Origin: Patescibacteria group bacterium
GTDB taxonomy: Bacteria; Patescibacteriota; Patescibacteriia; JAXHNJ01
DNA length: 64,000 nt
Direction: 5' to 3'
NCBI GenBank assembly: GCA_041649715.1
Contig: JBAZMP010000001.1
Span: 309,287-373,286 of the forward strand
The position numbers were made by a program, and so were the translations under genes. Each line of letters starts with the position of its first letter. Position 1 is the first letter of the stretch. Of this stretch, positions 1-45,743 are shown piece by piece. The notes beneath the pieces are model-generated. The model ran no database searches. It was not told the origin of the DNA and worked only from the letters and a program-made list of their open reading frames with translations.

Positions 1-35
1 CAGAGTTAAGCCGAATGTCTCTTGGAAACGAGTGA

Positions 36-76
36 TTTTTTGGCTTGAATAAAAGCAGGAAAAATGCTAAGGTAGG
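36..76 (+). promoter_or_regulatory. Conserved ~40-bp upstream element, copy 1 (TTGAAT-17 bp-TAAGGT promoter-like) in front of dinD
   Basis: The sequence TTTTTTGGCTTGAATAAAAGCAGGAAAAATGCTAAGGTA is repeated almost identically at 1086..1126 in front of the next operon. It reads as a -35 TTGAAT, a 17-bp spacer, a TGn motif and a -10 TAAGGT. Confidence 0.45.
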
Positions 77-118
77 GGAGTAACATATACGAATTTCGGT
101 GGCTGGGAGAAAAAATAT

Positions 119-973
119 ATGGAAAAACAGATCATTGTCCGGCTGCATAAAAATTTCGAGGATTGCGCCCGCGAAAAAGACGGCGTGGAATTTTGGTATG
201 CCCGCGAATTGCAGGAATTGCTCAACTATGACAAGTGGGGCAATTTTGAGAATGTCATAAATAAGGCGAAAATAGCCTGCCGGAACGCGAAACAAGAGGT
301 CGCCGACCATTTTGCCGACGTCGGGAAAATGGTTGATTTGGGTTCCGGAAGCCAGCGTGAAGTGCCTGATATTATGCTGACGCGTTATGCCTGCTACCTG
401 ATCGCCCAGAATGGCGATCCGCGAAAAGACGAGATTGCTTTCGCTATGACCTATTTCGCGGTGCAGACGCACAAGCAGGAAATAGTCGAGCAGCGCCTGG
501 TCCAGTGGGAACGGGTGCGCGACCGGGGAAAGCTTTCTACTTCTGAAAAATCTCTTTCCGGCGTGCTTTTTGAGCGCGGAGTGGACAGCCAGGGGTTTGC
601 CCGGATCAGGAGCAAAGGTGATGCCGAGCTTTTTGGCGGATTAACAACTCAGGATATGAAGCAGAAATTAGGCGTGCCGAACAGCCGACCGCTGGCTGAT
701 TTTTTGCCCAGCGTAACCATTAAGGCCAAGGATTTGGCGAATGAAATAACTAGCCATAATATCCGGAAAGATACGGATTTGCGGGGGGAAGTTCCCATTA
801 CTTCAGAGCACGTGAAAAGCAACCGCAATATGCGCCAGATGCTCGGCAAGAGCGGCATTTACCCCGAAGACTTGCCGGCGGAGGAAGACGTGAAAAAGCT
901 TGAACGCAAGCTTAAGTCGGAAAATAAAAAATTGCCAAAGGCGGTTAAGAAGCTGAAAGATAGCAAAAAATAA
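119..973 (+). CDS. dinD: DNA-damage-inducible protein D (DinD)-like protein
   Basis: 284 aa. Strong collinear similarity to E. coli DinD as I recall it: ...GSGSQREVPDIMLTRYACYLIAQNGDPRKD... matches GSGAQRELEDVHLSRYACYLVVQNGDP. It also has FWYARELQELLNYDKWGNF and a basic C-terminus. Confidence 0.8.
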   Translation: MEKQIIVRLHKNFEDCAREKDGVEFWYARELQELLNYDKWGNFENVINKAKIACRNAKQEVADHFADVGKMVDLGSGSQREVPDIMLTRYACYLIAQNGDPRKDEIAFAMTYFAVQTHKQEIVEQRLVQWERVRDRGKLSTSEKSLSGVLFERGVDSQGFARIRSKGDAELFGGLTTQDMKQKLGVPNSRPLADFLPSVTIKAKDLANEITSHNIRKDTDLRGEVPITSEHVKSNRNMRQMLGKSGIYPEDLPAEEDVKKLERKLKSENKKLPKAVKKLKDSKK

Positions 974-1062
974 TCCCACGTTGAGACATTAGAAAAACAG
1001 CCCAAGCTCTAAAGTGCCGCTTAAAGATTGAATTTGTTAAATAGATAATAATAGGCTTTGTG

Positions 1063-1092
1063 GCGCCTCGCTGCGGCTCGGCGCCTTTTTTG
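1063..1092 (+). terminator. Intrinsic terminator after dinD
   Basis: GGCGCC-tcgctgcggctc-GGCGCC hairpin followed by TTTTTT. Confidence 0.5.
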
Positions 1093-1126
1093 GCTTGAAT
1101 AAAAGTAAGAAAAATGCTAAGGTAAA
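1086..1126 (+). promoter_or_regulatory. Conserved ~40-bp upstream element, copy 2 (TTGAAT-17 bp-TAAGGT) in front of the restriction-modification operon
   Basis: TTTTTTGGCTTGAATAAAAGTAAGAAAAATGCTAAGGTA matches copy 1 at 38 of 41 positions. Confidence 0.45.
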
Positions 1127-1213
1127 GGCATAAAATAACACAAATTTTGGTGGAAAATAGATTATAATACGGAGGTAAATTAAAAGAATTTTTGGGCAAT
1201 TAAATAAAAATAT

Positions 1214-3586
1214 ATGAATAGAAATGTAGTTGAAGAATATTTAAAAAAACAGAAAATAAAAGTCGTTGAGGAATTTGATTTTGAAAAAAAGAAAGTAAAA
1301 TATTCCGAAAAGATAAGAGGTTGGAAGATTGATAAATTTAGGGGCGATGAGGAAATCGTTAGAGCTTTTGTTCTTGCTAAACTTGTAAACGAATTGGGAT
1401 ATAAACCTGAGAATATTGAATTGGAAAAAGAATATGATATTGGTAGACCAAAGGTAAATAAACCCAGAATTGATATTATAGTTAAAGACGATAAAGACAA
1501 CGTTTTTTTGTATATTGAATTAAAAAGCCCCGCAGATTATGAAAAAGATAAGGATGAAGTAATTGAGAAACAACTTTTTAATCTTGCTTCACAAGAACAG
1601 GGCCAAGGTAAAAAAGTAAAATATCTCGTATTATATACAATTGAAATTGTTGAAACCCAGATAAAAGACAAATGTATTTTGATTGACTATGAAAAATTTA
1701 ATTCATTCAACACGTGGAAAGAAGTACGAAATTACGCAGATGAATTACCCGAAAGATATGAAAAAGCTCAAAAAGAACCATACGTAAAAGGTGGAAAAAA
1801 AGATTTAGAGACAAACTTTTCATATGAACAGCTTGATGGGCTGAGAAAAAATCTACATAATGTACTTTGGGGAGGTGGTGGAACAGATGACAACGATATT
1901 TTTTCGTCATTAGTAAATATTATTTTGGCAAAAATTCAAGATGAAAGCGAAAAAGAGGAAGGCGGAGAATATGACTTCCAAATTCGTTCATTTAAAGATG
2001 GCGAAAGTTTTGAAACCAACCAGCAACTTTTTATAAAAATAAATGATCTTTATATAAGAGCGTTAAAACAAAGATTAAATATTATTGACGAAAATGAGTT
2101 AAAAGAAAGCTTTGTAATTGATAAAAAGAAATTTTCTCTTGCAAAATTAAAATACACTATAATGCAAATCGAGAGATATTCATTTGTGGACGGGAAAAAC
2201 AGCTTTGACGGTAAAGATATTCTAGGAGACTTTTTCGAGGGTATTATTAGAGAAGGATTTAAACAAACAAAAGGTCAATTTTTTACGCATGTTAATATTG
2301 TAAGGTTTTTGCTTTGGGGGTTGCAACTTGATAAGCTAGCAATTGATAAAGTGAATAAAGATTTAGAAATTCCCTACCTAATAGATCCAAGCGCCGGTAG
2401 CGGCACTTTCCTGATTGAATATATGAAGTTTATTACCGAAAATCTCAAGAGAAGATTTAAAAGTAGACTAGCAAAAAAAAGAGACGTAGAGGACAAATTT
2501 AATCAATGGTTTATCCCTGACCACCGAGAAAATAAATGGGCACAACATTATATTTATGGCATAGAAACTAATTTTAATCTAGGTACTGCTACTAAAGTAA
2601 ATATGATTTTGCATGGGGATGGCTCAACTAATGTTTTTGTTAAAGACGGACTATTACCTTTTAATTATTACGACAAAGAAACCGCGCCGAACTATTTGAA
2701 GCAAAGCGAACAAGACAAAAACTACTTTAATAAAGAAGTAAATAAGCAATTTGACGTGATTATAACTAATCCTCCATTTAGTGTCACTTTGGATAATGAA
2801 ACAAAAGAGCATCTTACTAAAGAGTTTATTTTTGGAAGCACAAAAAACTCGGAAAATTTGTTTGTAGAAAGATGGTATCAATTATTAAAACCTAACGGAA
2901 GATTTGGGGTAGTTTTGCCAGAAAGTGTTTTTGATACAACAGAAAATAAATACATTCGTCTATTTATTTACAAATATTTTAAAATTAAAGCAGTAGTTTC
3001 TTTACCACAACTTACTTTTCAGCCGTTTACAAGTACTAAGACTAGTCTTTTATTCGCTCAAAAGAAAACTGATAAGGAAATTGAAGAATGGAATAAACTT
3101 TGGAGTAAATATAGTAGTGAATGGAGTGCTCTAAAAAATAAGTGTAAAAATTTATTATTGGTCTATTTAGAAAACAAAGACAAAAAGAAATTATCTTCAA
3201 TCAAAGATTTGTTAGAATCGGAGAAAAAAGAGATATTATTAAGAATGCTTAAAGATAATATTGAAGAAGATGATAAAAAATTATTAGCAAAAGAGCTGAT
3301 ATATAAATACAAAAGTGAATTAGTTGAACTTTGTGAATATGATAACGATACTAAAGATGTTTTTGGTTTTGTCAATACCTGGTGGGTTTTTAGTGAGGTA
3401 GCAAAAATACTCAATTACAAAATTTTTATGGCAGAAGTAGAAAATATTGGATATAAAAGGACTAAAAGAGCTGAAAAACCTATGCCAAACGAACTTTATC
3501 GCGTAAATGATAAAGGAGAAGTTTTAGTTGATGATGGCAGGATAGAAACTGCTTTAGATTATTTAAGAAAAGTGATATGGGATTAA
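1214..3586 (+). CDS. Restriction-modification bifunctional subunit: N-terminal HSDR_N-type PD-(D/E)xK nuclease domain fused to a gamma-class N6-adenine DNA methyltransferase (BcgI-A-like Type IIB, or a Type I M-like subunit)
   Basis: 790 aa. The N-terminal region has PRIDIIVKDDKDNVFLYIELKSP, a D..ExK nuclease motif. Methyltransferase motif I is LIDPSAGSGTFLIEY and motif IV is ITNPPFSV. The gene overlaps the downstream S gene by 10 nt and is extremely AT-rich. Confidence 0.75.
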   Translation: MNRNVVEEYLKKQKIKVVEEFDFEKKKVKYSEKIRGWKIDKFRGDEEIVRAFVLAKLVNELGYKPENIELEKEYDIGRPKVNKPRIDIIVKDDKDNVFLYIELKSPADYEKDKDEVIEKQLFNLASQEQGQGKKVKYLVLYTIEIVETQIKDKCILIDYEKFNSFNTWKEVRNYADELPERYEKAQKEPYVKGGKKDLETNFSYEQLDGLRKNLHNVLWGGGGTDDNDIFSSLVNIILAKIQDESEKEEGGEYDFQIRSFKDGESFETNQQLFIKINDLYIRALKQRLNIIDENELKESFVIDKKKFSLAKLKYTIMQIERYSFVDGKNSFDGKDILGDFFEGIIREGFKQTKGQFFTHVNIVRFLLWGLQLDKLAIDKVNKDLEIPYLIDPSAGSGTFLIEYMKFITENLKRRFKSRLAKKRDVEDKFNQWFIPDHRENKWAQHYIYGIETNFNLGTATKVNMILHGDGSTNVFVKDGLLPFNYYDKETAPNYLKQSEQDKNYFNKEVNKQFDVIITNPPFSVTLDNETKEHLTKEFIFGSTKNSENLFVERWYQLLKPNGRFGVVLPESVFDTTENKYIRLFIYKYFKIKAVVSLPQLTFQPFTSTKTSLLFAQKKTDKEIEEWNKLWSKYSSEWSALKNKCKNLLLVYLENKDKKKLSSIKDLLESEKKEILLRMLKDNIEEDDKKLLAKELIYKYKSELVELCEYDNDTKDVFGFVNTWWVFSEVAKILNYKIFMAEVENIGYKRTKRAEKPMPNELYRVNDKGEVLVDDGRIETALDYLRKVIWD

Positions 3587-4989
3587 ATAAATTTACAGTT
3601 GATTTTCAAAATATTGGTGAACAACAATTTTTAAGACCCAATTTTGGTTACAGGTATTTTTTTGATATTCAGAATGCGGAAATTTATCCTACAAAAGATA
3701 GTATTAAATTAAAATATGTCTTGAATGAGATGCCGATGAAGAAAGTAAGCAAGGGTGAATTAGAAGAGTCAGAAATTCTGATTGATATAGGAAATATTGA
3801 AAGAAGATTTAATAATTTAATAAATTTAGTAGAAGTAGATAGAATAGGTTCTGATAAAAATATAATGCAATATGGAGACATCATTATACCTAAATTGCAA
3901 CCACAAATGGGGAATATTTTTTTAAATTCTGGTCATAAAAGATTTATAGGATCTACCGAATTGCTTGAATATAAAATTAATGAAAATTATAATCCCATAT
4001 TCATTTATTACTTAATTACTTCTAATAAATTTCTTTTTGATCTAGCAAAATTGGAAAGTGGAAAAGCGCATAGAAGGGTAAATTCAGTAGATCTGTTAAA
4101 AATTAGAATTCCCTTAATATCTAAAGAATCGCAAGATTTAATTGTTGCTCAAATATGGCCGATTGAAAAGAAAATTAATGAACTAAAAAAACAAATTGAA
4201 CAACCTCAAAATGTTATTAATAAAGTTTTTGCAAGAGAATTTGGTTTTGATTTAGAAAAATATGAAAAGTTAAAGAAAGATAAGTTTTCCGAAGTAGATT
4301 TAAAAGATATTTTGAGACATAATTTTGTTAGAATAAGTTTTCATTTTCATCATAAAACTCTTATTGCCATTGAAAATAAATTAAAAAATAAGAATTATTG
4401 GGCGCCGGTTAATTCATTATTTAGTTTATTCGGTGGAAAAAGAATACCAAAGGGTAAGAGTTTTTCGAATATCGAAACGGACTATTATTATTTAAGACCT
4501 ACGGAAGTAAGTATTTGGGGTATTGATAAGATTAACGTTCCATTTATCCCTGTATCAATTTATGATCAGTTAAAGAGATATAAAATAGTAACGGATGAAT
4601 TTTGTATTTCAATTGTCGGTACTTTAGGGAAAACCGCGTTAATTAACACAGATATTTTAGATATAGGAAAAGATAATTTAATATTAAGTGAAAACTTTAT
4701 TAAACTAAAACCTAAAAAACATATAAATAGTTTATTTTATATTTACTTTTTTTATAGTTTTATTTTTGAAGCGCAAATTAATAGAGAATATACCATAACA
4801 TCAATAAAAAAATTAGGTATTGATAAATGGAATAATATAAAAATTCCATGTATTTCTATTATAAAACAGCAAAAAATTGTTGATGAAATCAAGGGTGAAT
4901 TAGACAAACAAGAAAAATTTTATAAGAAAATTGAAATGGAAAGAGATAAAATTGATGAGATTATTGAAAAAGTGATTATTCGTGAATAG
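3577..4989 (+). CDS. hsdS: Restriction-modification specificity subunit (HsdS / BcgI-B-like, two target-recognition domains)
   Basis: 470 aa. Two variable domains are separated by the conserved central coiled-coil spacer (LISKESQDLIVAQIWPIEKKINELKKQIEQ). The C-terminus has a matching repeat (IKQQKIVDEIKGELDKQEKFYKKIE). It is translationally coupled to the methyltransferase gene. Confidence 0.8.
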   Translation: MGLNKFTVDFQNIGEQQFLRPNFGYRYFFDIQNAEIYPTKDSIKLKYVLNEMPMKKVSKGELEESEILIDIGNIERRFNNLINLVEVDRIGSDKNIMQYGDIIIPKLQPQMGNIFLNSGHKRFIGSTELLEYKINENYNPIFIYYLITSNKFLFDLAKLESGKAHRRVNSVDLLKIRIPLISKESQDLIVAQIWPIEKKINELKKQIEQPQNVINKVFAREFGFDLEKYEKLKKDKFSEVDLKDILRHNFVRISFHFHHKTLIAIENKLKNKNYWAPVNSLFSLFGGKRIPKGKSFSNIETDYYYLRPTEVSIWGIDKINVPFIPVSIYDQLKRYKIVTDEFCISIVGTLGKTALINTDILDIGKDNLILSENFIKLKPKKHINSLFYIYFFYSFIFEAQINREYTITSIKKLGIDKWNNIKIPCISIIKQQKIVDEIKGELDKQEKFYKKIEMERDKIDEIIEKVIIRE

Positions 4990-5064
4990 ACTCATATTTA
5001 AGTCATTTTTACAATATCCATTGACCTAATTTATTTCAATTAATAATTATTAATTAAGAATATT

Positions 5065-5985
5065 ATGGCAAATCTCTATTGGAAAAAGAATAAAAAAATA
5101 TTAGCCGCTACCGAGACACCATTTAAAACAGAAGATGAACTTGAACGTTATCTATTAGATACCCGGGGGATTTTAAGCGAAATCAATATAATAAATAGGC
5201 AAATTAGGTCCAAAACGGTTTCAGGAATAGAAATTCCAGATATGATCGGAGTTGATAGCGAGGGTTCCATTGTTATTATTGAAAATAAAAATGTTCCGGT
5301 TGATGAAAGGATTATTTCTCAGGTACTTAATTATGCTCTTTGGGCAGAATCTAATCCAGATTCAATAAAGAATTTATGGCTTCAAGCTGATCAAGAAGGC
5401 GTGGAACCAGAATGGGACAATTTACAAATTCGCATAATGATAGTTGCCCCAGAAATAAAACCACATTTAGCAAAATTCATTTCAAAAATTGGATACCCAA
5501 TTGATTTATTAGAGATAAAAAAATTTAATATTAGTAAAGATGAATTTATTGTGTTAAATAAAATAGAACCAAATATAATTGATACAAAACCAGTACATGC
5601 AAAAAGAAATTATGATTATTCATATTATTCAACCAATCATAATAAGGAAAGTGTAAAAAAACTTGAAAAAGCTGTAAATAGCGTTGAAAATTATGTTAAT
5701 AAAAACAAATGGAAATTAGAAAAAAAATTTAACCAAGGTTATGTGGGCTTTAAATATGGTTTTCCCTTAGTTTTTGGCATACAGTGGTTAGGAACCAGAT
5801 CCTTCGGGTTTTTTTTCAAAATGCCTAAAGCAAAAATGAAAAAAATTATTGTTCCGGGCCTTGAATTTAAGGGTTATAATGATCGGTGGGATCAAGTAGA
5901 ATATAAAATTATTTCACCTACTTTTGACGTTAAAAAATTAAAACCAGTGTTTCTAGCTTCATACAATTATGTCAAAGGAGAATAA
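5065..5985 (+). CDS. PD-(D/E)xK nuclease-like protein of unknown function (restriction-endonuclease-like fold, possible NucS/DUF91-like core)
   Basis: 306 aa. IPDMIGVDSEGSIVIIENKN followed by QVLNYALWAE reads as D...ExK plus a QxxxY motif. The gene is AT-rich and sits inside the defense island. Confidence 0.45.
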   Translation: MANLYWKKNKKILAATETPFKTEDELERYLLDTRGILSEINIINRQIRSKTVSGIEIPDMIGVDSEGSIVIIENKNVPVDERIISQVLNYALWAESNPDSIKNLWLQADQEGVEPEWDNLQIRIMIVAPEIKPHLAKFISKIGYPIDLLEIKKFNISKDEFIVLNKIEPNIIDTKPVHAKRNYDYSYYSTNHNKESVKKLEKAVNSVENYVNKNKWKLEKKFNQGYVGFKYGFPLVFGIQWLGTRSFGFFFKMPKAKMKKIIVPGLEFKGYNDRWDQVEYKIISPTFDVKKLKPVFLASYNYVKGE

Positions 5986-6031
5986 CATTTTTTCTTTAAA
6001 AGTTGCGCTATAATATAATAAGATATGCAGC

Positions 6032-6598
6032 ATGAGTAATCTTGAAACATTTTTCGAACAATTCGAAGAATGGGTGCTAAAAGATATTAAAATAGTACTA
6101 GAATTAGTAAATAAAGAAGGTAATTCATTAGCCCCTGATAGAAGAGTGGTGGTTTGGCGGCGCCCGCTTGTCGCCGGAGTTATATTAATATGTTGCGCTA
6201 TCGATACATTAGCCGCATTTCGTTATGGCCGAACTAATAATAATGTGGGAACATATTTTATGCGCTTTGTTAGAGATTATTTTGCGCAAAGCCGTGACAC
6301 TAGATATAATGATGAGCAAATCTATAAGGGGTTACGTAATGCATTATTACACGGCTATTCTCTTGGATCAGATTTAGCATTAAGTCATACTAGCGCTTCA
6401 CGGCATTTGACGAAAGAAGCAAACAAAATAGTTATAGATGTATTTTCACTGCAGCAAGATTTAGAAAAAGTATATTCTATCTATAAAAGTGAATTGAAAA
6501 ATGGACAACATATTCCAGAATTTAATGATAGATGGAATTACGCACCTCTTATTCAATATTTTCCTGATATAGATTTAAAACTTAATAGCAGAAATTAA
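6032..6598 (+). CDS. Hypothetical protein (defense-island associated)
   Basis: 188-aa ORF with no recognisable motif. It follows the nuclease-like gene 46 nt downstream and is followed by a strong terminator. Confidence 0.5.
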   Translation: MSNLETFFEQFEEWVLKDIKIVLELVNKEGNSLAPDRRVVVWRRPLVAGVILICCAIDTLAAFRYGRTNNNVGTYFMRFVRDYFAQSRDTRYNDEQIYKGLRNALLHGYSLGSDLALSHTSASRHLTKEANKIVIDVFSLQQDLEKVYSIYKSELKNGQHIPEFNDRWNYAPLIQYFPDIDLKLNSRN

Positions 6599-6652
6599 AG
6601 TAATTCAAACATAAGCTCATTTTTCCCTCCCCACTGGCGGTTTTTGCCTAAC

Positions 6653-6687
6653 AAAAAAATCCTCAAAAAAGCTGACGAGGATTTTTG
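6653..6687 (+). terminator. Intrinsic terminator
   Basis: AAAAAATCCTC-aaaaaagctgac-GAGGATTTTTG hairpin. Confidence 0.6.
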
Positions 6688-6691
6688 ACTA

Positions 6692-6871
6692 TTAAATAGT
6701 CAAATCGTGAATAGGTACACTAGCTGCCCAACGTTTTATCCATTGAACAGAATCTATAGCATTTTGTTTTGAGGAATAACCCTCACTCCAAGCAACGAAT
6801 TCGTTGTTTGCAGCAACAAGACGCCATCGGTACTCATTTGCGTTATCACGATAGATTTCGAATCTAATCAT
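6692..6871 (-). CDS. YegP/UPF0339 (DUF1508) family small protein, absent from the ORF track because it is under 60 aa
   Basis: Reverse-strand translation gives MIRFEIYRDNANEYRWRLVAANNEFVAWSEGYSSKQNAIDSVQWIKRWAASVPIHDLTI (59 aa), the classic DUF1508 pattern FEIYkDkageyRfRLkA.NGEiia.SegY.sk. Confidence 0.7.
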   Translation of the reverse strand: MIRFEIYRDNANEYRWRLVAANNEFVAWSEGYSSKQNAIDSVQWIKRWAASVPIHDLTI

Positions 6872-7293
6872 GATTTTTTTCCTTTGTTAGACTATACTTA
6901 GGAGTCGACCTTTAATTTACTCCCAGGACAAAAACCAAATAATTTAGTTCCTATCAGGGGAGAATTAAAAGCGACTTAATCTAGATATAGAATAAGCGCC
7001 GGATTTTACCTCGCCAGCTTTTTCAAAGAGTTTTTAACAGCTACATACTAACGAATAATAATGTCTCTGTCAAGTAGGTTTATTATTTTAGCTAAAAAGC
7101 TTATAATAAATCCATGTCCAAATACTACAACTCTAAGCGCACCAAACATCTTTTTGACCCTACCTTTTTTAACGCTATTTGTTATAAGCACTAAATCCGA
7201 AATACGAAACTCTAAACAAATTCTAATTTCTCAAATCCGAAATTCGAAACTGAGGGTTTTAAAAGCCAAAGACGATAACGAAAAACAAGCGGT

Positions 7294-7405
7294 AGAGGGG
7301 GTCCGGGGGAAAAACTGAAAGCCAAACGGCCATACGGAACAACCTTACCCACCTCTCGCGGTTTTTTTCCCCCGGAACTTTTGCTACTTTTAGTTATAAA
7401 AGTAG
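7294..7405. repeat. Structured repeat family A, copy 1 (GGGGTCCGGGGG ... CCCCCGGAAC long hairpin plus a small 3' hairpin)
   Basis: GGGGGTCCGGGGGAAAAACTG...CGGTTTTTTTCCCCCGGAAC, then CTACTTTTAGTTATAAAAGTAG. Related copies lie at 10409..10530, 12596..12755 and 12866..12955. Confidence 0.7.
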
Positions 7406-7409
7406 AAAT

Positions 7410-7525
7410 ATATCAGTACAGACAAAAAAGTAAGTAGGGGATAATCAAAAAAGACTGTCTACCCTTCGAGGCTCAAGCCTGTCCTGAGTGGCATCGAAGG
7501 ACACCTCAGAGTGACAGTTTTATTT
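7410..7525. repeat. Structured repeat family B, copy 1 (AGTAGGGGATAA..CTGTCTACCCTTCGAGGCT-[variable]-CACCTCAGAGTGACAGTTTTA)
   Basis: The conserved 5' and 3' arms can pair (CTGTCTACCC with GGGTGACAG) around a variable core. Copies lie at 10141..10215, 10560..10640, 10700..10795 and 12757..12790. Confidence 0.65.
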
Positions 7526-7695
7526 TGATTCTTTTTCACCAAAAAAACAAACAATCAACCAAGACATTTTTTATCCGCCCGCTAGCCTTAGCGTGTTTTT
7601 TGTATGAAGAAGTTTATCCACCTTGACTTAGAAAGGTATATATATTAGTGTTAAGTTAGTACTAATTCAGTAAATTAGCACAATCTACTAATTTT

Positions 7696-8283
7696 ATGAA
7701 ATGGCTAGATTTTGAGCGAAAAATTAAGAGTAAAAATATTAAGCTGTTCACGCCGCTTGATGTGCAGAGATTTTTAGGCCGGTCTAAAATAGCCGCCCGT
7801 TTTTTGATCCATCGCCTGAAAAAAAATGGCTATATTGTGAGCCTCAAACGCGGTTTGTATAAGCTGTCCGATGAACAAATTCCGGATCTGTATCTGGCCA
7901 ATAATATTTACGCCCCCTCGTATGTTTCCCTGGAATTCGCCCTTTCGTACCACGGAGTCATTCCCGAAACTGTCTATGAGATAACTTCGGTTACCACCAA
8001 GGCCACCCGCCGGTTTGAGGCGCTGGGAAAAGTTTTTTCTTACCACAAAATAAAAAAACCGGCTTTTACCGGCTATGTCATCCAAAAACAGGGCGGGTTG
8101 GGTTTTCACGTCGCCGAACCAGAAAAGGCTTTCGTGGATGCGAATTATTTTCGGCTCTTGGACGGCCGAAAACCGCTGTCCCGCTTCAACAAGGATAAAA
8201 TTGATTTAAAAAAGGCCTTGTTTTATGCCGCTCTTTTCGGCAATCAGAAACTTAACAATATAATTAAAACAACGCTTCAATGA
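7696..8283 (+). CDS. abiEi: Type IV toxin-antitoxin system antitoxin AbiEi (winged-HTH transcriptional regulator)
   Basis: 195 aa. The N-terminus MKWLDFERKIKSK...FTPLDVQRFLGRSKIAARFLIHRLKKNGYIVSLKRGLYKL is typical of AbiEi. The gene overlaps the downstream gene by 4 nt (ATGA). Confidence 0.75.
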   Translation: MKWLDFERKIKSKNIKLFTPLDVQRFLGRSKIAARFLIHRLKKNGYIVSLKRGLYKLSDEQIPDLYLANNIYAPSYVSLEFALSYHGVIPETVYEITSVTTKATRRFEALGKVFSYHKIKKPAFTGYVIQKQGGLGFHVAEPEKAFVDANYFRLLDGRKPLSRFNKDKIDLKKALFYAALFGNQKLNNIIKTTLQ

Positions 8284-9023
8284 TTTCCCAGGAATTAATA
8301 AAAAAAATAGCCAGTCAGAATAAAACAGCGGATTTTCCCAATATTGTCCGCGAGTATTTTCAGCACCTTTTTTTATCCGAGCTCTATAGATTATCCGGCG
8401 CCGAGAATTTGCTTTTTAAGGGCGGGACCGCTTTGCGCATTATCTACGGCAGTCCGCGCTTTTCCGAGGATTTGGATTTTACCCTGATCGGCGTTGAAGG
8501 TTACCGGAAAAAGGAATTCGCGGAAAGCCTGTTTCTCAGCGTTTTGACCGAGATTGAAAAAATCGGCATTAAGGTGGAGATAAACCGGAAGTCGGATGAG
8601 ACCCGCGAGGGTTATTTTGGCGATGCGAACTATCAGGTTTATGATTATCCCGAAACGTCCGTGAGTATAAATATATCCTCAAGAGAGGGAAAAGATATTA
8701 AGGGCGAGATTGATTCCATCGCCAATGATTTCATACCGACTTATAATATTCTGCATCTGTCAAAAAATGTGTTGGTGGAAGAAAAAATAACGGCCGCGAT
8801 CACTCGGGCGAAACCCAGAGATTTTTACGATGTCTATTTTATCCTTAGAAAAAATTTGCTGGCGACAGAAAATAAAAAAATACTCCCTGACATCCTTGAT
8901 AAATTGAATAACACTGATATTAATTTTACCCAGGAATTAGGCATTTTCTTGCCGAAGGATCAGCAGCAAATAGTGAAAGATTTCAAGAATATTTTAACTT
9001 CTGAAATAAAGCGTTATATTTAG
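8280..9023 (+). CDS. abiEii: Type IV toxin-antitoxin system toxin AbiEii (DUF1814 nucleotidyltransferase)
   Basis: 247 aa. It has the nucleotidyltransferase motif LFKGGTALRIIYGSPRFSEDLDFTL (GS...DxD), and its size and operon partner are typical. Confidence 0.75.
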   Translation: MISQELIKKIASQNKTADFPNIVREYFQHLFLSELYRLSGAENLLFKGGTALRIIYGSPRFSEDLDFTLIGVEGYRKKEFAESLFLSVLTEIEKIGIKVEINRKSDETREGYFGDANYQVYDYPETSVSINISSREGKDIKGEIDSIANDFIPTYNILHLSKNVLVEEKITAAITRAKPRDFYDVYFILRKNLLATENKKILPDILDKLNNTDINFTQELGIFLPKDQQQIVKDFKNILTSEIKRYI

Positions 9024-9036
9024 CCTTAACATATTT

Positions 9037-10059
9037 ATGGAAACCAAAAATCCAATGAAAACCAAAAAGTGGCTCTGGTACGCCGCAGCGGCTCTTTTAT
9101 GTTTTATCGCCATCGCCGCTTTTGCCTGGAGCGCGGCCAATAAGAGCAAGAATACGAACGCGGTGGCCGTGGCCAATAAAAACGTAAATTCGGCTGCTAA
9201 TTCCAACGCCGCAGCTGGTCAGAACGCCAATAGCAGTCTGGCCAATACCAATACGAACACCAATAATAATACTAATGCCAGCGCCAATACCAACGCTAGC
9301 CAGATCGTGACCGCGGCCAAGACCATTGATGAAACAGCCATTACGCTGGTGCAAAAAAGTACCGGCCACTGCGAAGCCTTGGCTCCTTTGGACTGGTCTT
9401 TTGTCACCAATGCCGAAGGGAGCGGCGCGGATCTTTATTCCGCCGATAAATCCTTGAAAGCCGCCATGCACGCCGGCTGGGGGATCTCGGCCGTCTATAC
9501 CTACATGTATCCGACCGTGGATTCTTTTCTTTCCGCCTGGCTCGGTTATGCTTATACCGGTTCATTTACCAACGGAGGCATTACCTTGGCCGCCGCCCAG
9601 GATGTTTATGAAGGTTTTATCCAGCGGGAATTTACCACCTCAAACGGCCGCAAAGGGGTGGCGATATACAAGACCTACAATTTCGGCGACCCGACCATGT
9701 ACGTGGTTTCCGTTTATATCGCCGATACGGCCAGCGACAAGTGGGAGACCAGCGGCGCTCAGCCATTTTACGTCGCCCTGACCATCCGCTGCGTCACCCA
9801 GCTCCGGCCGGTAACTTCCAGCGTTGATCCTTACACTTCTGATCCGGGCAGTTCTTCTGACAATCCCGAAGTGGGCCTGTCTGACAAATGGACCGAAGCC
9901 ATTATGGGTTATGAAAATGTCTATTCCCCGACCACGGGGGAGCATTACGAAGCGCCCCTTACTTCCGAGTGGCAGGGCGGTCCGCAAGGAACCGGTTATT
10001 ACCGCAGCCTTCCCAATGGCGGTTATGAAAAACTTGAACCGGGGTTTGGAGAGTACTAG
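9037..10059 (+). CDS. Membrane-anchored extracytoplasmic protein of unknown function with an Asn-rich linker
   Basis: 340 aa. A basic N-terminus and one TM helix (WLWYAAAALLCFIAIAAFAW) are followed by an NTN/NAN low-complexity linker and a globular domain. GC content is markedly higher than in the neighbouring genes. Confidence 0.6.
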   Translation: METKNPMKTKKWLWYAAAALLCFIAIAAFAWSAANKSKNTNAVAVANKNVNSAANSNAAAGQNANSSLANTNTNTNNNTNASANTNASQIVTAAKTIDETAITLVQKSTGHCEALAPLDWSFVTNAEGSGADLYSADKSLKAAMHAGWGISAVYTYMYPTVDSFLSAWLGYAYTGSFTNGGITLAAAQDVYEGFIQREFTTSNGRKGVAIYKTYNFGDPTMYVVSVYIADTASDKWETSGAQPFYVALTIRCVTQLRPVTSSVDPYTSDPGSSSDNPEVGLSDKWTEAIMGYENVYSPTTGEHYEAPLTSEWQGGPQGTGYYRSLPNGGYEKLEPGFGEY

Positions 10060-10830
10060 GCAGATAATATTATTGTCATACTGAGGAGCCATGAGATCCT
10101 GAGTCGCATCGAAGGACGAATGGCGTCTCGAAGTATGACCGTTTAGACACATAAAAGCCTGTCTATCCTTCGAGGCTCGCATTGCTCGCACCTCAGGGTG
10201 ACAGTTTTAGTTTTATTTGAAATTCGGTGCATCGGATTTAATCGTCAGGCGGCGAAGCGTTGACGAGCCGCCACTAAGAAAAAGTTAGCAGTAATTTAAG
10301 CTTTCAGCAGGCTGGGGTCTCTGCCTACGGCAGACAGGTGGGGGCTTCATCGCCTTAAATATTTTACAGCGTTTTTTGCTATTAAAAATAACGAAAATTT
10401 AATGGGCGAGGGGGTCCGGGGGAAAAACTGAAAGCGAATGGGCTACGCGGTAAAACCAACCCCCTGTGCTCGCGGTTTTTTTCCCCCGGGGCTTTTGGTT
10501 CTTTTGGCCTCAAAAGAACAAGACAATCAGCCTTGCCCCCTAAAATAAAAATTTTCTAAAGGTAAAAACTCACCCTTCGAGGCTCCCATTCGACGCGGCT
10601 CATGCTCGCACCTCAGGGTGACAGTTTTATTATTTTGGTTTTTGGAGTCTGCCCTGAGTGGCAACGAAGGGGTTACAAAAGTTGAAATACTTCGGCACAG
10701 ACTAAAGATTGAGTAAGGGATAAACAGAAGAAACCGTCTACCCTTCGAGGCTTAGGCGTTGCCTTCGCACCTCAGGGTGACAATTTTAGTTTGCATTTAT
10801 CAACTTTATAAGATTAAAATAAAAGACCCT
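10060..10830. repeat. Non-coding island densely packed with structured repeat modules (families A and B, a TTAGCAG..GCTTTCAGCA module and an AGCCTTGCCCCC..AAAATAAAA module)
   Basis: Family A copy at 10409..10530. Family B arms at 10158..10215, 10571..10640 and 10735..10795. A CTGCCCTGAGTGGCAACGAAGGGGTTACAAAAGTTGAAA module at 10644..10690. No credible ORF. Confidence 0.7.
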
Positions 10831-11375: not shown

Positions 11376-11627
11376 ATGGAAACCTCTAAAATCGAATCTT
11401 TTGCGCAAGCCATGGCCAGAGCGGAAACACTGGAAAGGGAAGGCGGTTTAACTGACGAAGTGATGGCTATAAGGATGTGGGTCAAAGAAAAATATCCAAC
11501 GGAGTTTGCCGGATATCTTAAGAATAAAACCGATAAAGCCGGCAGCGCCGGCGAAACCATCCATTCCAATGTCTACGGGAAAAAAAGAATGGATGACCTG
11601 AAAAATAAAAGAGAAATTAAATTCTAA
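11376..11627 (+). CDS. Hypothetical small protein
   Basis: 83-aa ORF with a TATAAT box about 10 nt upstream. The protein is charged and helical. No motif recognised. Confidence 0.4.
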   Translation: METSKIESFAQAMARAETLEREGGLTDEVMAIRMWVKEKYPTEFAGYLKNKTDKAGSAGETIHSNVYGKKRMDDLKNKREIKF

Positions 11628-11637
11628 AAATATCCAT

Positions 11638-12531
11638 ATGCAAAAAAAATCCTGGCTTAGCCTCATTTATTTTCTGGTTTTTGGCTTATTAATAATTTTT
11701 ACTTTCTTATTCAAAAGCCGTTCTCTGCTGTATGTAGTAATTCCCATTTTTTTTGGTTTTATCGTGGTTTTGAGTTTGATAAATGTTGGAGGCAAGATGT
11801 TTTCTTTTTCCAAAGGTTTGATGACCATGAGTAAAACCGGGCCGGTTTTTACCTCTAAGGTCTGGTCTTGGCGGGAAGGGGAAACGATTGATTTCGCCGA
11901 TATTTTTCCGGGGTTGAAGGACGTGACCTCATTTTTCAGTGAAATGCCACTGCCGAAAATAAAACCGGAGAGAGTGGCGATTGGAGAAAAAGAGGGGGTG
12001 AATTATAATATTTACCGGCTTAATTTCACGAATATCGTAAAAGTTCCGGCCAGCCGCAAACCGGGCTTCCGGCCGCTGATAATCCACGGGGTTAAAGCGC
12101 CGGGAATGAGCGGGGGCTTGAATTCAAGTGTGAGCCAGAGCTTTAATATTTTGCAGGCCAGATTGACTTTTCCTGGATCTTTCCCCGGCCGTTTGATTAT
12201 CCAAAGAGTTGCCGGGCCGACCTTGGGCCGTGATATTGATCTGGAAAGCGTGGAATTTAACAAAAAAGTTCAGGTCTATACCAATCAGGCCAAAATCGCT
12301 TACCAGATTTTATCCCCGGATTTTATGGACTGGTATTTGAAACTGCCTGATCAGCCGGTTATCGCTTTTGACCAACAGATATGTTATTACACCCTGATCG
12401 GATTCAGTAATAAGGGTGAGGAAGAGATTACCGCCGATATTGAACAATTGATTGACCGCGTCCTGCATTCAGGGGCTTTAACCTTATCCCAAATCCCAAA
12501 TCCTAAATCCAAAACAAATCCCAATATCTAA
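11638..12531 (+). CDS. Hypothetical membrane protein (two N-terminal TM helices plus a globular domain)
   Basis: 297 aa. TM helices are LSLIYFLVFGLLIIFTFLF and VVIPIFFGFIVVLSLINV. The last roughly 12 codons (PNPKSKTNPNI) are encoded by an AAATCC-type repeat. Confidence 0.55.
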   Translation: MQKKSWLSLIYFLVFGLLIIFTFLFKSRSLLYVVIPIFFGFIVVLSLINVGGKMFSFSKGLMTMSKTGPVFTSKVWSWREGETIDFADIFPGLKDVTSFFSEMPLPKIKPERVAIGEKEGVNYNIYRLNFTNIVKVPASRKPGFRPLIIHGVKAPGMSGGLNSSVSQSFNILQARLTFPGSFPGRLIIQRVAGPTLGRDIDLESVEFNKKVQVYTNQAKIAYQILSPDFMDWYLKLPDQPVIAFDQQICYYTLIGFSNKGEEEITADIEQLIDRVLHSGALTLSQIPNPKSKTNPNI

Positions 12532-13175
12532 ATCTGAAATTCGAAACACGGCGGCGTCGTCTCATTTTATGGTGAACAAAAGTAATCAGAAAGCGTGGGG
12601 GCTCCGGGGGTTTTCCTCAGTCCGCAGGGGTTTTAGCGTCTATTTACGCAAATCTTGAACGAATTAAAACCCCCGGGGCTCTTTGGTACTTTCTGGCCCC
12701 AGAAAGTACAAGCAAACAGCCTTGCCCCCAAAAATAAAATTTTCAAAAAAGTAAAACTAACCCTTCGACGCGGCTCAGGGTGACAAGAGGAGAAAGGCGG
12801 CGAAACCAGGGGCGAGCCGCCTAGTGAATAAAAATTAGCAGATACTTTATGCTTTCAGCAAAACAGGGGTCCGGGGGGAATGCTCGACTTTGCGGCTTTT
12901 AGCATTTATATGAGTTTTAAGGGGGCAATCATTCCCCCCGGAACTTTTGCTACTGGAGCCTGCCCTGAGTGGCACCGAAGGGGTTACAAAAGTTGAAAGA
13001 TAGCATCTAAAAAAACAGCTAAAGTAAAACAAAATAATAAACCAAAAAATTACTCTCGCCCGTCTTACGCATAGGTCGATCTTTTTGGCTAATTTAAGCA
13101 GAAATAACAAAAAGACGTTAATTTTGACTAAATCGGCTAAAATCGCTATAATAAAGTTAAATACAGGAGGGGAAA
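12532..13175. repeat. Non-coding island of structured repeat modules (family A copies 3 and 4, a family B fragment, and others)
   Basis: GGGGGCTCCGGGGGTTTTCC...AAAACCCCCGGGGCTC at 12596..12680. GGGGTCCGGGGGGAATG...CATTCCCCCCGGAAC at 12866..12955. CTGCCCTGAGTGGCACCGAAGGGGTTACAAAAGTTGAAA at 12958..13000. Confidence 0.7.
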
Positions 13176-14480
13176 TTGAGTAAACAAATGCCGTATATTT
13201 TGTTATCAGACATCAAGCAATATTTAGGCCAAGAGGTGCTTCTTAAAGGCTGGGTTTTTAACGCCCGGTCTTCCGGAAGCCTCTTTTTTTTACAGCTGCG
13301 GGACGGCTTGGGAGAGGTTCAGGGAGTAGTTTCCAAAAAAGAAGTCAGCCCGGAGGTTTTTGACGCCGCAAAGAAGCTTCAGATAGAATCTTCCGTGGAA
13401 GTCACCGGGATTTTGAAAGAAGAGGCTAAATCGCCCTCGGGTTTTGAAATTCAGGTTAAGGATTTGAAAGTCATTCAGATAGCCTCCGATTACCCGATCG
13501 CCAAAAAAGAGCACGGCCCGGATTTTCTGATGGATAACCGGCATTTGTGGCTTCGTTCTTCCCGCCAGCGGGCGATTTTAAAAATAAGGGATTCGGTTAT
13601 TTGGGCCGCCCGCAAATTTTTTAAAGACAATAATTTTACGCTGACGGATTCGCCGATCCTGACGCCGACCGCCTGCGAAGGGACGACCACGCTTTTTAAA
13701 ACCAAATATTTTGAGGAAGACGCTTATCTCGCGCAGTCCGGACAATTATACATTGAAGCGACGGCCGCCGCCCTGGGCCGGGTTTATGATTTCGGGCCTA
13801 CATTCCGGGCGGAAAAATCCAAGACCCGTCGTCACCTGATGGAATTCTGGATGCTGGACGCGGAAGCGGCTTTTGTGGAGCATGAGGAAAACTTAAAGAT
13901 CCAGGAAAATCTGATCAGTTCCATTGTTAAATATGTTTTGGAAAATAATAAAAAAGAGCTGGCAGTTTTGGAAAGAGACATAAAACCTTTGGAAAAAATT
14001 AAGCCGCCTTTTTACCGCAAGAAATATGAAGAGGTTATTAAGGATCTGCAAAGCAAGGGAAGCCCGATAAAATCCGGGGATGATTTCGGCGGAGACGAGG
14101 AAACCCTGATTTCCAAGGATCTGGACAAACCGGTTTTTGTCACGCATTGGCCGAAAAGTATAAAACCTTTTTACATGAAACAGGATCCCCGAAATCCCAA
14201 ATTAGTTTTGAATGCTGATTGCCTCGCCCCGGAAAGTTTTGGCGAGATCATCGGCGGTTCGCAAAGGGAAGATGATTATGAAACTTTGAAAGCCAACATG
14301 GAAAAAGCGAAAATTCCCATCAAGGATTACCAGTGGTATTTGGATTTGCGCCAATACGGCACTTTTCCGCACTCCGGTTTTGGCTTGGGAATTGAAAGAA
14401 CCGTGGCCTGGATCTGCGGATTAAAGCATATCCGCGAGACGATACCGTTTCCAAGAATGCTGAATAGACTTAGGCCATAG
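13176..14480 (+). CDS. asnS: Asparagine--tRNA ligase
   Basis: 434 aa. Class II motif 2 is FRAEKSKTRRHLMEFWMLDAE and motif 3 is GFGLGIERTVAWICGLKHIRETIPFPR. It has an N-terminal OB anticodon-binding domain and the size typical of AsnRS. A TTG start sits 5 nt after AGGAGG. Confidence 0.85.
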   Translation: MSKQMPYILLSDIKQYLGQEVLLKGWVFNARSSGSLFFLQLRDGLGEVQGVVSKKEVSPEVFDAAKKLQIESSVEVTGILKEEAKSPSGFEIQVKDLKVIQIASDYPIAKKEHGPDFLMDNRHLWLRSSRQRAILKIRDSVIWAARKFFKDNNFTLTDSPILTPTACEGTTTLFKTKYFEEDAYLAQSGQLYIEATAAALGRVYDFGPTFRAEKSKTRRHLMEFWMLDAEAAFVEHEENLKIQENLISSIVKYVLENNKKELAVLERDIKPLEKIKPPFYRKKYEEVIKDLQSKGSPIKSGDDFGGDEETLISKDLDKPVFVTHWPKSIKPFYMKQDPRNPKLVLNADCLAPESFGEIIGGSQREDDYETLKANMEKAKIPIKDYQWYLDLRQYGTFPHSGFGLGIERTVAWICGLKHIRETIPFPRMLNRLRP

Positions 14481-14499: not shown

Positions 14500-14672
14500 T
14501 TTAAATCCTAAATTCTAAATCCGAAAATCTAAACAAATCTTAAATTCTAAATTCCAAATTCAAAACCGGTTTGGAACATTGGAAAATTAGGGCTTCGAAT
14601 TTGTTTCGGATTTAGGATTTCGCGCTTCGAATTTATCTGAATTTTGGTGCTTGTAATTTGGAATTTTGAAGA
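14500..14672. repeat. Long AT-rich palindromic hairpin of the AAATYC/GAATTT family (probable bidirectional terminator)
   Basis: AAATCCTAAATTCTAAATCCGAAAATCT...TTTCGGATTTAGGATTT. The two arms are near-perfect reverse complements across more than 60 nt. Confidence 0.65.
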
Positions 14673-15125: not shown

Positions 15126-15146
15126 GAATATTAGTATTAAAATAAT

Positions 15147-16421: not shown

Positions 16422-16447
16422 TTATATTAAATAGTCGAAAAAAATAA

Positions 16448-17311: not shown

Positions 17312-17317
17312 AGAATA

Positions 17318-17368
17318 TGGACCGAATATTCACTTCGCAAACCTTAGACAAGGTAGACAAAAAATAAA
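17318..17368 (+). pseudogene. Remnant duplicate of the aspS 5' end (encodes MDRIFTSQTLDKVDKK then a stop)
   Basis: About 50 of 55 nt identical to 18660..18714, the true aspS start. Confidence 0.7.
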
Positions 17369-37671: not shown

Positions 37672-37845
37672 CAAACTAAATTCTAAATCCGAAATCCTAA
37701 ATTCTAAACAAATCATAATATCTAAATCACAAATTCGAAACCCCATTAGAAATTCTATTTTTAAATAGGAAACCGGTTTGGGACATTGGAAAATTATTGC
37801 TTCGAATTTGTTTAGGATTTAGAAATTGAGATTTGGAATTTTATC
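37672..37845. repeat. AAATYC-family long palindromic hairpin
   Basis: AAATTCTAAATCCGAAATCCTAAATTCTAAACAAATC ... GATTTGTTTAGGATTTAGAAATT. The arms are complementary. Confidence 0.65.
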
Positions 37846-45440: not shown

Positions 45441-45735
45441 GTTTAAGAATATGAGCGACTTGGATCTTAGTGAAATTAGTAAAACAGTTCCAAAAAATTG
45501 GGATACTTCTTCAATGTCTTCAGAGCCCAAGCCCGAGATTACCACCGATAGAGATTATAACCAATTATACATGGATAATTTAGACCTGAAGCGTGAAATA
45601 AAAAATCTTGAAAAAGAACTTGGGGAACAGAAAGACAGATATAAAAGACTGAAAAATTATCTTATTGAAATTGTTATAGGAGTAATAATAGTTATTATTG
45701 GCGCTTTTTTAATAAGCATATTAAATATTAATTAA
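45439..45735 (+). CDS. Hypothetical coiled-coil protein with a C-terminal TM helix
   Basis: 98 aa. The C-terminus is IEIVIGVIIVIIGAFLISIL. Confidence 0.4.
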   Translation: MFKNMSDLDLSEISKTVPKNWDTSSMSSEPKPEITTDRDYNQLYMDNLDLKREIKNLEKELGEQKDRYKRLKNYLIEIVIGVIIVIIGAFLISILNIN

Positions 45736-45743
45736 TATAATTT

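Follow-up and report, generated by a model that had tools for sequence, protein, structure and literature searches.

A probable mosaic of independent antiphage defense modules around a paddle-less BsaXI-type restriction system on a Patescibacteria chromosome

Do the defense-type genes crowded near the left end of a 64,000-nucleotide (nt) stretch of a Patescibacteria chromosome (hereafter the window) form a single acquired island, or do they have separate histories? The original prediction treated positions 1 to 9023 as one AT-rich, horizontally acquired defense island holding a DinD gene, a two-gene restriction-modification (RM) system (a nuclease-methyltransferase gene, RM, and a specificity subunit gene, S), a PD-(D/E)xK nuclease gene with a partner, a DUF1508 gene, and an AbiEi/AbiEii pair. 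Every gene on that list is present and intact, the genes do form a defense cluster, and the core of the cluster is strongly foreign in composition, but the 9 kb is not one unit, as dinD and the AbiE genes are native. We consider the locus to be a mosaic antiphage defense locus, built of independent modules of different ages on a chromosome of the candidate phyla radiation (CPR), with a probability of roughly 0.78. The evidence consists of composition, homology, domain architecture, conserved catalytic residues, and neighborhood statistics. In the history that we propose, the AT-rich core (about 1,140 to 6,900), with RM, S, a 306-amino-acid (aa) gene, a 188-aa gene, and the DUF1508 gene, would be a recent import from an AT-rich donor, and dinD (upstream) and AbiEi/AbiEii (downstream) would be its flanks of native composition.

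The AT-rich tract is real and far beyond chance. In 1-kb windows the GC content is 24 to 31% at positions 1001 to 6000, compared to a mean of 45.6% over the 9- to 63-kb baseline (standard deviation [SD], 3.6; minimum, 34.9%), which places the tract 4 to 6 SD lower. At 200-nt resolution GC falls from about position 1,140 and recovers gradually between 6,600 and 7,800, and on the basis of GC, GC at third codon positions (GC3), and codon usage we delimit a compositionally foreign block, without strand, at 1138 to 6900. GC3 is 0.23 in RM, 0.17 in S, 0.22 in both the 306-aa and the 188-aa gene, and 0.28 in the DUF1508 gene; in the housekeeping landmarks of the window, asparaginyl-tRNA synthetase (AsnRS, encoded by asnS; 13176 to 14480), aspartyl-tRNA synthetase (AspRS, encoded by aspS; 18660 to 20039), and DnaK (43484 to 45394), it is 0.52 to 0.60. 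The codon-usage z score, here the synonymous-codon distance from 35 reference genes of the window, is 4.4 for RM, 6.2 for S, 5.4 for each of the 306-aa and 188-aa genes, and 7.1 for the DUF1508 gene, whose shortness makes the value noisy. The first 1 kb, occupied by dinD, is 48 to 50% GC. Because dinD (GC3, 0.60; z, -0.3), abiEi (0.50; -0.2), and abiEii (0.48; 0.6) have host-like GC, GC3, and codon usage, they lie outside the compositional island, as does, with a z score of 0.0, a 340-aa gene that follows abiEii. Composition is thus not uniform, and the AT-richness claimed for the first 6.6 kb or so exists, but it spans about 1,140 to 6,900 and leaves out dinD and the AbiE pair.

Comparison with relatives shows that the block is not a conserved feature of this locus. 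Two more assemblies of the same population, ENA ERZ27247363 (L001, made with MEGAHIT) and Logan SRR8542065 (L002), match the window at 100% identity across 10,973 bases, and L001 supplies about 9.9 kb of additional left flank. Relatives were found via AsnRS in species-representative genomes, and the 80 closest loci come nearly all from metagenome-assembled genomes, many of them of Patescibacteria/CPR. In the 10 kb upstream of asnS, the nearest two, L003 (AsnRS 91% identical; DNA identity about 81%) and L004 (AsnRS 80%), lack all of the island genes and all genes of the left flank of the window. Both carry there a P-type ATPase gene and, after it, a gene for a 200-aa protein (L003 versus L004, 68% and 59% identity), a pair that is absent from the window and from L001 and probably represents the ancestral arrangement. 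L003 also shares with the window a small open reading frame (ORF; 66% identical to 11376 to 11627) and the intergenic repeats before asnS. The region upstream of asnS is plastic in this lineage.

Several observations weigh against a recent import into a mosaic locus. The left flank is not collinear with the relatives and offers no clean empty site, so that the term "insertion" rests on composition. Neither an integrase gene nor a tRNA gene lies near the AT-rich block (the only tRNA gene of the window is at 27.9 kb), and no direct repeat of at least 10 nt is common to both borders of the block. As the RM family is AT-rich in every host examined, low GC is in part a trait of the gene family rather than an indicator of timing. 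The three population records, being 100% identical, are uninformative on presence or absence at the strain level. Lastly, PDC-S18 and PDC-S13, the families of the 306-aa and DinD proteins described below, are PADLOC candidates only, and a search of a collection of papers found no mention of either.

The abrupt compositional step at the block could also mark the remnant or cargo of a mobile element (prophage, integrative and conjugative element, or plasmid), or else a chimera of assembly or binning. Some RM homologs do stand beside conjugation- or phage-like genes (contigs L095 and L097, described below), and DinD matches a phage family, phrog_8036 (2e-82). We nevertheless regard this explanation as extremely improbable. 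Integrase, transposase, and capsid/terminase genes are absent from about 10 kb of sequence on the left and 55 kb on the right, and the DNA of the block matches no phage record and just one plasmid, in part (Aerococcus, 69% over 19% of the query). The 306-aa and 188-aa families were not found in IMG/VR viral contigs, and PHROGs returned only generic methyltransferase, S-subunit, DinD, and DUF1508 families. Both junctions are identical in the ENA (MEGAHIT) and Logan assemblies, with housekeeping genes continuing on either side, and this agreement between two differently made assemblies argues against a chimera.

The RM gene (1214 to 3586, plus strand) encodes a 790-aa RM subunit of the BsaXI family of Type IIB enzymes, identified by its match to PDB 8w0p and by its Pfam domains, in which a PD-(D/E)xK nuclease is followed by a helical connector, a gamma-class N6-adenine methyltransferase, and a knob, with no paddle. 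Residues 4 to 765 align with residues 6 to 774 of the 916 in chain A of 8w0p (RM.BsaXI) with an E value of 1.3e-275 and 920 bits, and Pfam finds HSDR_N_2 (2.8e-8), N6_Mtase (2.1e-27), and an Eco57I domain. Mutation of the BsaXI nuclease residues E73, D90, E105, and K107 inactivates cleavage (PMC11997821), and E71, D87, E102, and K104 are their counterparts here in the alignment with 8w0p_A. The S-adenosylmethionine (SAM) motif DPSAGSGTF begins at residue 391, and NPPF occupies 519 to 522. The two-gene system composed of a nuclease-methyltransferase and an S subunit, as originally predicted, is therefore borne out, in the form of a BsaXI ortholog.

BsaXI itself (Geobacillus stearothermophilus; PDB 8w0p, 8w2p, and 8w2q) likewise consists of two genes, an RM fusion and S, and conservation over the 762 aligned RM residues takes in the catalytic residues, the SAM motif, NPPF, the helical connector, and the knob. 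The knob is retained in that the alignment runs unbroken across BsaXI residues 626 to 742, the published limits of this element (PMC11997821). The two differ in that BsaXI RM has 916 aa and a two-helix paddle, whereas the RM subunit here has 790 aa, no paddle, and a CPR host. The C-terminal paddle (about residues 800 to 835 of BsaXI) is absent, as the protein ends at residue 790 and the alignment stops at BsaXI residue 774. Paddle residues D816 and E823 are required for cleavage by BsaXI, and a subgroup of BsaXI homologs with fewer than 800 residues has been described in which the knob is present and the paddle absent (PMC11997821). The paddle is not universal in the BsaXI family, and by its alignment the RM subunit studied here belongs to the published short, knob-only class. 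Two other identities were considered and rejected. Assignment to the methylation-associated defense system (MADS) fails on the NCBIfam scores of RM and S for mad2 and mad5 (164 versus a cutoff of 720 and 45 versus 400), and BsaXI is a far better match; a classical Type I RM system does not fit a locus that has no HsdR helicase gene and in which the nuclease is fused to the methyltransferase.

The S gene (3577 to 4989, plus strand) overlaps the RM gene by 10 nt and encodes a 470-aa subunit (PADLOC Specificity_I, 1.4e-22). It matches dozens of PADLOC models of Type I S subunits in two stretches, which indicates two target recognition domains (TRDs). The same pair, with a 790-aa RM, an S of 468 to 471 aa, and the same 10-nt overlap, occurs on three other contigs (L095 to L097), where RM is about 80% identical to that of the window and S is just 32 to 38% identical; against the BsaXI chains in the PDB, S has no detectable sequence match. 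TRDs usually diverge in this way, and the recognition site is predicted to differ from that of BsaXI. By analogy with BsaXI, RM and S would assemble with the stoichiometry (RM)2S, and the putative enzymatic activities of this complex would be adenine methylation in a bipartite site, defined by the two TRDs of S, and cleavage to either side of the site where the DNA is unmodified.

The RM family has more than 2300 proteins at an E value of 1e-50 or below. The best 120 of these are all 77 to 83% identical to the query and include proteins of Candidatus Yanofskybacteria (CPR), Nanoarchaeota, and Melioribacteraceae; such identity across phyla and both domains implies frequent transfer. What follows RM and S on the three contigs varies, being an AAA_21/SMC protein plus a set of genes like those of cyclic-oligonucleotide-based antiphage signaling systems (CBASS) in one case, a GmrSD-type protein plus another CBASS-like set in the next, and RadC plus others in the last. 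Because the downstream genes differ from contig to contig, we take RM plus S to be a self-contained mobile module. Orthologous RM genes are 31 to 33% GC and orthologous S genes 27 to 30% GC in hosts with a local GC of 36 to 50% or more, which raises the possibility that the tract has long been resident and that its low GC is kept by selection, through low expression of toxic genes or a bias of the RM family. That mobility genes and insertion scars were not found around the block would suit such a history as well. We consider it very unlikely, given that the two nearest genomes lack these genes at the locus and that the high identity of RM homologs requires frequent transfer, and given that a GC3 of about 0.2 and codon z scores of 4 to 7, seen in four adjacent but unrelated genes, are better explained by a common foreign origin.

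The third gene of the AT-rich core is a PDC-S18-like single-gene module (5065 to 5985, plus strand). Its 306-aa product matches the PADLOC candidate PDC-S18 (PDLC04944) at 1.9e-100 over the full length (residues 1 to 306 on 1 to 307 of 307), and its 75 homologs include close ones at 69 to 83% identity and others at about 36 to 57%. Residues D59, E73, and K75 (IPDM...IIENK), a PD-(D/E)xK signature, are invariant in an alignment of 38 homologs, and the AlphaFold (AF2) model made from this alignment has a mean predicted local distance difference test (pLDDT) score of 86. Searched with Foldseek, the N-terminal half of the model finds NucS/EndoMS (2vld and 5gke) at an E value of about 1e-4, and the C-terminal half finds YjbR, PSPTO_3016, the DUF1801 protein YdhG, and the double-wing C-terminal domain (CTD) of T4 MotA at probabilities of 0.9 to 0.99; Pfam detects NucS_C in 13 and DUF5655 in 2 of the 38 homologs. 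Judged by the model, the protein is a NucS-type PD-(D/E)xK nuclease fused to a predicted DUF5655/YjbR/MotA-CTD-like DNA-binding domain. Its N-terminal domain has the fold and the D...E-x-K motif of the catalytic C-terminal domain of NucS/EndoMS. Unlike NucS/EndoMS, it lacks the N-terminal dimerization/DNA-binding domain, has a different second domain, and sits in a defense island; as the NucS N-terminal domain is missing and the NCBIfam NucS score is just 19.1 bits (cutoff, 216), the protein is no NucS ortholog. A Shedu or Hachiman-like identity was also rejected, the matches being marginal (SduA_C at 0.082 in 1 of 38 homologs; HamA at a probability of 0.44).

In other genomes this gene recurs at the end of restriction operons. 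One homolog comes after genes for an MmeI-type enzyme, a helicase, and further nucleases, and another lies 28 nt past the hsdS gene of a type I system in which Fic and AAA_15 genes are embedded; a third, on a CPR contig, lies between Fic/SDH-protease genes and dnaK with no RM gene. A scan of metagenome contigs yielded 80 PDC-S18 loci, in which RM genes were probed by tblastn with a small RM panel, so that the counts are lower bounds. Where at least 1.5 kb of upstream sequence was available, a same-strand RM gene occurs within 4 kb upstream in at least 16 of 49 loci, and half of these (8 of 16) end within 200 nt of the PDC-S18 gene; a downstream RM gene occurs in just 2 of 36 loci. Among the close homologs (70% identity or more), 9 of 12 have RM upstream. 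The PDC-S18-like gene thus repeatedly closes RM operons of types I, IIB, and IIG, and the 306-aa protein is a candidate DNA-cutting effector that would travel with RM systems. PDC-S18 has been a computational candidate, which our protein matches over its full length; the domain-level description and the operon-position statistic, namely, the placement at RM-operon 3' ends, are added here and are mildly novel.

The 188-aa gene (6032 to 6598, plus strand) encodes a HEPN-like protein with the motif R102-x4-H107-G-Y109, a predicted RNase effector, and has no match in Pfam, NCBIfam, PADLOC, or PHROGs. In 18 homologs at 50 to 60% identity, the RNALLHGYS block that contains this motif is invariant. 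A profile search of 1.84 billion cluster representatives retrieved 364 clusters (at 50% identity) with E values of 1e-3 or below, and among 102 diverse representatives (18 to 46% identical to the query) R102 and H107 are the sole invariant columns. HEPN ribonucleases are typified by an invariant Rx4H, and it is because of the invariant Rx4H(xY) motif that we predict an RNase. The titles of PDB entries for HEPN/MNT toxins name the mutants R102A, H107A, and Y109F, which have the same R-x4-H-x-Y spacing. The AlphaFold model (pLDDT, 80; predicted template modeling score [pTM], 0.80) is mainly helical with a beta-hairpin insertion. Weighing against the HEPN assignment, a Foldseek search with this model gave nothing significant (best E value, 0.68), none of the 18 and 102 members matches Pfam, and the PDB gave no sequence or profile match; some homologs have a precomputed match to PF27329 (Rv1289), a faint one. 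On balance we lean toward placing the protein in HEPN, and its sequence suggests a candidate RNase, most likely with a role in abortive infection or as a toxin.

We compared the 188-aa protein with the minimal HEPN toxins of HEPN/MNT systems (PDB 5yep, 7ae2, 7ae6, and 8xdj) and with other HEPN abortive infection proteins (AbiV, 9bj5). HEPN/MNT toxins have an MNT partner, whereas no MNT nucleotidyltransferase or other obvious antitoxin gene adjoins the 188-aa gene, and relative to the minimal toxins the protein has an added beta-hairpin insertion and an extra N-terminal helix. Its homologs were seen 6 nt after a 945-aa type IIG gene, in a type I RM island, and near an NmeDI_C restriction gene, and none of these three neighborhoods has a PDC-S18 gene. 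The family seems to be an unannotated Rx4H HEPN-like superfamily, not in Pfam, that trails RM genes, which is mildly novel.

RM, S, and the 306-aa and 188-aa genes have a common composition and orientation and are separated by short gaps (75 and 46 nt, before the 306-aa and the 188-aa gene, respectively), and both accessory families are, each on its own, enriched at RM-operon 3' ends. These features could suggest one integrated multicomponent system, for example, one in which an extra nuclease and RNase are triggered by failed restriction, but we judge it distinctly unlikely. The 188-aa family was never found beside the 306-aa family, either in six inspected neighborhoods or in the 80 metagenomic PDC-S18 loci, orthologous RM plus S pairs (about 80% identity) are followed by unrelated genes, and PDC-S18 homologs also occur with no RM gene nearby (Fic/SDH-protease ... 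dnaK). Taken together, the missing co-occurrence, the varied neighbors of RM plus S, and the RM-less PDC-S18 loci rule out a fixed four-gene system; a looser dependence of each accessory on whichever RM system precedes it is compatible with the same evidence. The nuclease and its supposed partner are therefore two independent stacked modules, as the families never co-occur, and of the extra nuclease pair in the original prediction the PD-(D/E)xK gene was right and the pairing wrong. That PDC-S18 and the 188-aa protein are dedicated second-line DNA and RNA effectors that trail and depend on RM, activated, e.g., when restriction is overwhelmed or inhibited, strikes us as unlikely. If it were true, both effectors would be stacked here behind one Type IIB enzyme, in a restriction operon also wired to the promoter of the resident dinD.

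That last connection comes from a duplicated element. The dinD-like gene (119 to 973, plus strand; GC, 49.8%) encodes a 284-aa protein with an N-terminal Bro-N domain (Pfam, 1.9e-9) and was correctly predicted, as it passes the NCBIfam equivalog NF008573 (346.9 bits versus a cutoff of 242; residues 1 to 279 on 1 to 287 of 288) and matches PADLOC PDC-S13 (3e-114). It also aligns to positions 14 to 280 of a 717-aa PADLOC Specificity_I model, so that the model would seem to contain a region resembling DinD. A promoter/leader repeat of the form TTGAAT-17 nt-TAAGGT ... AATTTYGGTGG lies upstream of dinD (copy 1, 36 to 102, plus strand) and again upstream of RM at the left edge of the AT-rich block (copy 2, 1086 to 1153, plus strand). 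The direct repeat covers 52 nt at 87% identity and is extendable to 68 nt at 84%; it has only these 2 copies in the window and L001, where 0 are expected by chance, and an exact-pattern scan of metagenome contigs from the Joint Genome Institute (JGI) gave 0 matches. Both copies finish in the identical start context AAAAATATATG, with a 44-nt insertion in the RM copy. A consensus scan places a terminator-like GC hairpin and T-run after dinD (1069 to 1083, plus strand), and the T-run enters copy 2. In its full-length match, Bro-N domain, and equivalog score the protein resembles E. coli DinD and PADLOC PDC-S13, and unlike E. coli DinD (DNA-damage-inducible protein D) the gene is not known to be under SOS control here and shares its promoter/leader with a restriction operon. 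The resemblance of the two copies suggests that dinD and the RM operon are probably co-regulated by the shared promoter/leader of about 70 nt. The incoming restriction operon would then be driven by a duplicate of the resident dinD promoter/leader, and the duplication may have arisen as a side effect of the recombination event that put the block in place. The dinD-RM promoter duplication is a mildly novel element.

The block closes with a gene for a single-domain DUF1508 protein (6692 to 6871, minus strand; 59 aa), which matches the Pfam family at residues 9 to 56 (4.9e-14) and, under the cutoff, the NCBIfam HVO_2922 family (8e-15). YegP consists of two tandem DUF1508 domains in about 110 aa, and the expectation of a YegP gene was thus correct as to DUF1508 but not as to architecture, the protein being HVO_2922-like with one domain. 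A 27-nt inverted repeat (6654 to 6680 and 7009 to 7035; 81% complementary) flanks this gene, and each of its arms holds a small terminator-like hairpin; the repeat may be the mark of a very small cassette or may have arisen by chance in such AT-rich sequence. An 85-aa ORF at 7061 to 7318 was treated as noncoding, as it has no matches and overlaps satellite and hairpin repeats.

The downstream flank is a type IV toxin-antitoxin pair with a predicted role in abortive infection, here in agreement with the original prediction. The abiEi gene (7696 to 8283, plus strand) encodes a 195-aa antitoxin/regulator matching PADLOC AbiEi over its full length (1.3e-39), with sub-cutoff matches to Pfam AbiEi_4 (1.6e-3; 19 bits) and NCBIfam (31.7 bits versus 150), and abiEii (8280 to 9023, plus strand), which overlaps it by 4 nt, encodes a 247-aa nucleotidyltransferase toxin matching Pfam PF08843 (2.5e-26; 93.5 bits, cutoff 22.5) and PADLOC AbiEii (7.4e-31; positions 1 to 244 of 260). 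The nucleotidyltransferase motif GGTAL...GSPRFSEDLDF is present in AbiEii, within the stretch GGTALRIIYGSPRFSEDLDF. Known AbiE systems have the same gene order and overlap, a winged helix-turn-helix AbiEi, and a DUF1814 AbiEii with a G-S...D-x-D motif; in comparison, the AbiEii of 247 aa is somewhat short. AbiE systems autoregulate. A cluster of short inverted repeats of the TTAGTNNTAA type (7644 to 7694, plus strand), directly upstream of abiEi, could by analogy be the AbiEi operator. Since the composition of the pair is native, it would have been acquired long ago or from a donor of similar GC. The 340-aa gene (9037 to 10059) starts 13 nt after abiEii, and is 53% GC with native composition. 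Its product has a transmembrane helix at the N terminus, a long low-complexity linker rich in Asn, Ala, and Thr, and a C-terminal part that is globular; it matches no family, bar one sub-threshold NCBIfam match, and no counterpart was found in L003 to L049.

To the left of the window, L001 encodes a class I methyltransferase, a four-helix protein of the 23S-rRNA-IVP type, and an NYN-domain protein (matched weakly by PADLOC NYN), and because of these genes the defense-type region may extend beyond the window start. The NYN gene (165 aa; L001 8639 to 9136) and the 23S-rRNA-IVP gene (L001 9379 to 9744) lie directly upstream of dinD, and an NYN gene of the same length follows a PDC-S18 homolog on another contig (L087 9501 to 9998). 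To the right, asnS and aspS are adjacent in many relatives (e.g., L015, L011, and L012), and here about 4 kb of unannotated genes stand between them. The 5' end of aspS (18660 to 18712) recurs as a 53-nt copy (91%) at 17317 to 17368, directly before a 423-aa gene, and the 5' ends of a 424-aa and a 287-aa gene share a 200-nt repeat (85%; 15139 to 15338 and 16441 to 16639). This gap looks like a second insertion with a duplicated target. Over positions 1 to 47000 of the window the plus strand carries nearly all long ORFs.

Structured repeats had been predicted to border the island. Repeat islands do exist, at 7275 to 7530, 10090 to 10800, and 12620 to 13000, and have several short modules in common, but all three lie to the right of the AT-rich block, one of them within the 1 to 9023 span, and at the left edge there is just the leader duplication. 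They separate groups of genes (AbiE and the 340-aa gene; the 178-, 83-, and 297-aa genes). The nearest repeat island leftwards is about 2.9 kb before the window start, on the opposite strand (L001 6860 to 7027). As homologous copies occur in L003 and elsewhere in the window, we take these repeats to be an intergenic feature of the lineage and not a mark of the island. L001 6860 to 7027 and window positions 12835 to 13001 form an inverted pair of about 170 nt, 80 to 81% identical, that brackets about 16 kb, from the left-flank methyltransferase gene to the gene before asnS; this whole stretch has no counterpart in L003.

Within the islands we recognize a two-hairpin element (window 7296 to 7414, 10409 to 10522, 12596 to 12712, and, in part, 12860 to 12955; L001 6860 to 7027, minus strand; L003 9500 to 9612, minus strand, and 9704 to 9818). 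The first hairpin, P1, is made of GGUCCGGGGG with a 4- to 5-nt extension, a loop of 35 to 50 nt, and the complementary extension with CCCCCGGRRC; the second, P2, is a perfect hairpin of 9 to 11 bp with a 4-nt loop. The element comes in two types, with compensatory AAAA/UUUU versus UUUU/AAAA pairings in P1 and different, complementary P2 arms. Over five sequences, double changes are found at 10 of 31 predicted pairs, and the z scores of single-sequence folds are -1.3 to -4.1. The position directly upstream of asnS is conserved between two species. The repeat islands match nothing in Rfam, at gathering thresholds or at an E value of 1 or below, and the element could be an unrecognized structured RNA or a REP-like (repetitive extragenic palindromic) element of CPR genomes. 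Satellite-like repeats of the AAATCC/GAAAT type, about 60 nt long and 82 to 88% identical, occur at 7191 to 7250, 12491 to 12547, 14508 to 14566, and 37685 to 37741 and at L001 9342 to 9405, several of them directly after stop codons (e.g., those of the 297-aa gene and asnS), and a 299-nt direct repeat (79% identical; 45718 to 46015 and 48426 to 48721) lies in a region poor in long ORFs.

The genomes of the ultra-small CPR/Patescibacteria are tiny and for the most part without CRISPR, and defense in these bacteria is believed to depend on RM-type systems. RM-bearing genomic islands and an enrichment of defense genes among transferred genes have already been reported in Patescibacteria (PMC12455944), and the locus studied here therefore fits expectations. 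BsaXI and its paddle-less relatives, AbiE, DinD, and the PADLOC candidates PDC-S18 and PDC-S13 are already known, and what we describe, its putative defense phenotype included, is an ordinary kind of defense island, now better annotated. Three by-products, namely, the BsaXI assignment, the description of PDC-S18, and the Rx4H superfamily behind RM genes, are all directly testable by expression and phage challenge. For the restriction enzymes, a very widespread, cross-phylum RM family is confidently tied to the solved BsaXI type in its paddle-less form, and this form bears on how such enzymes make their second cut.

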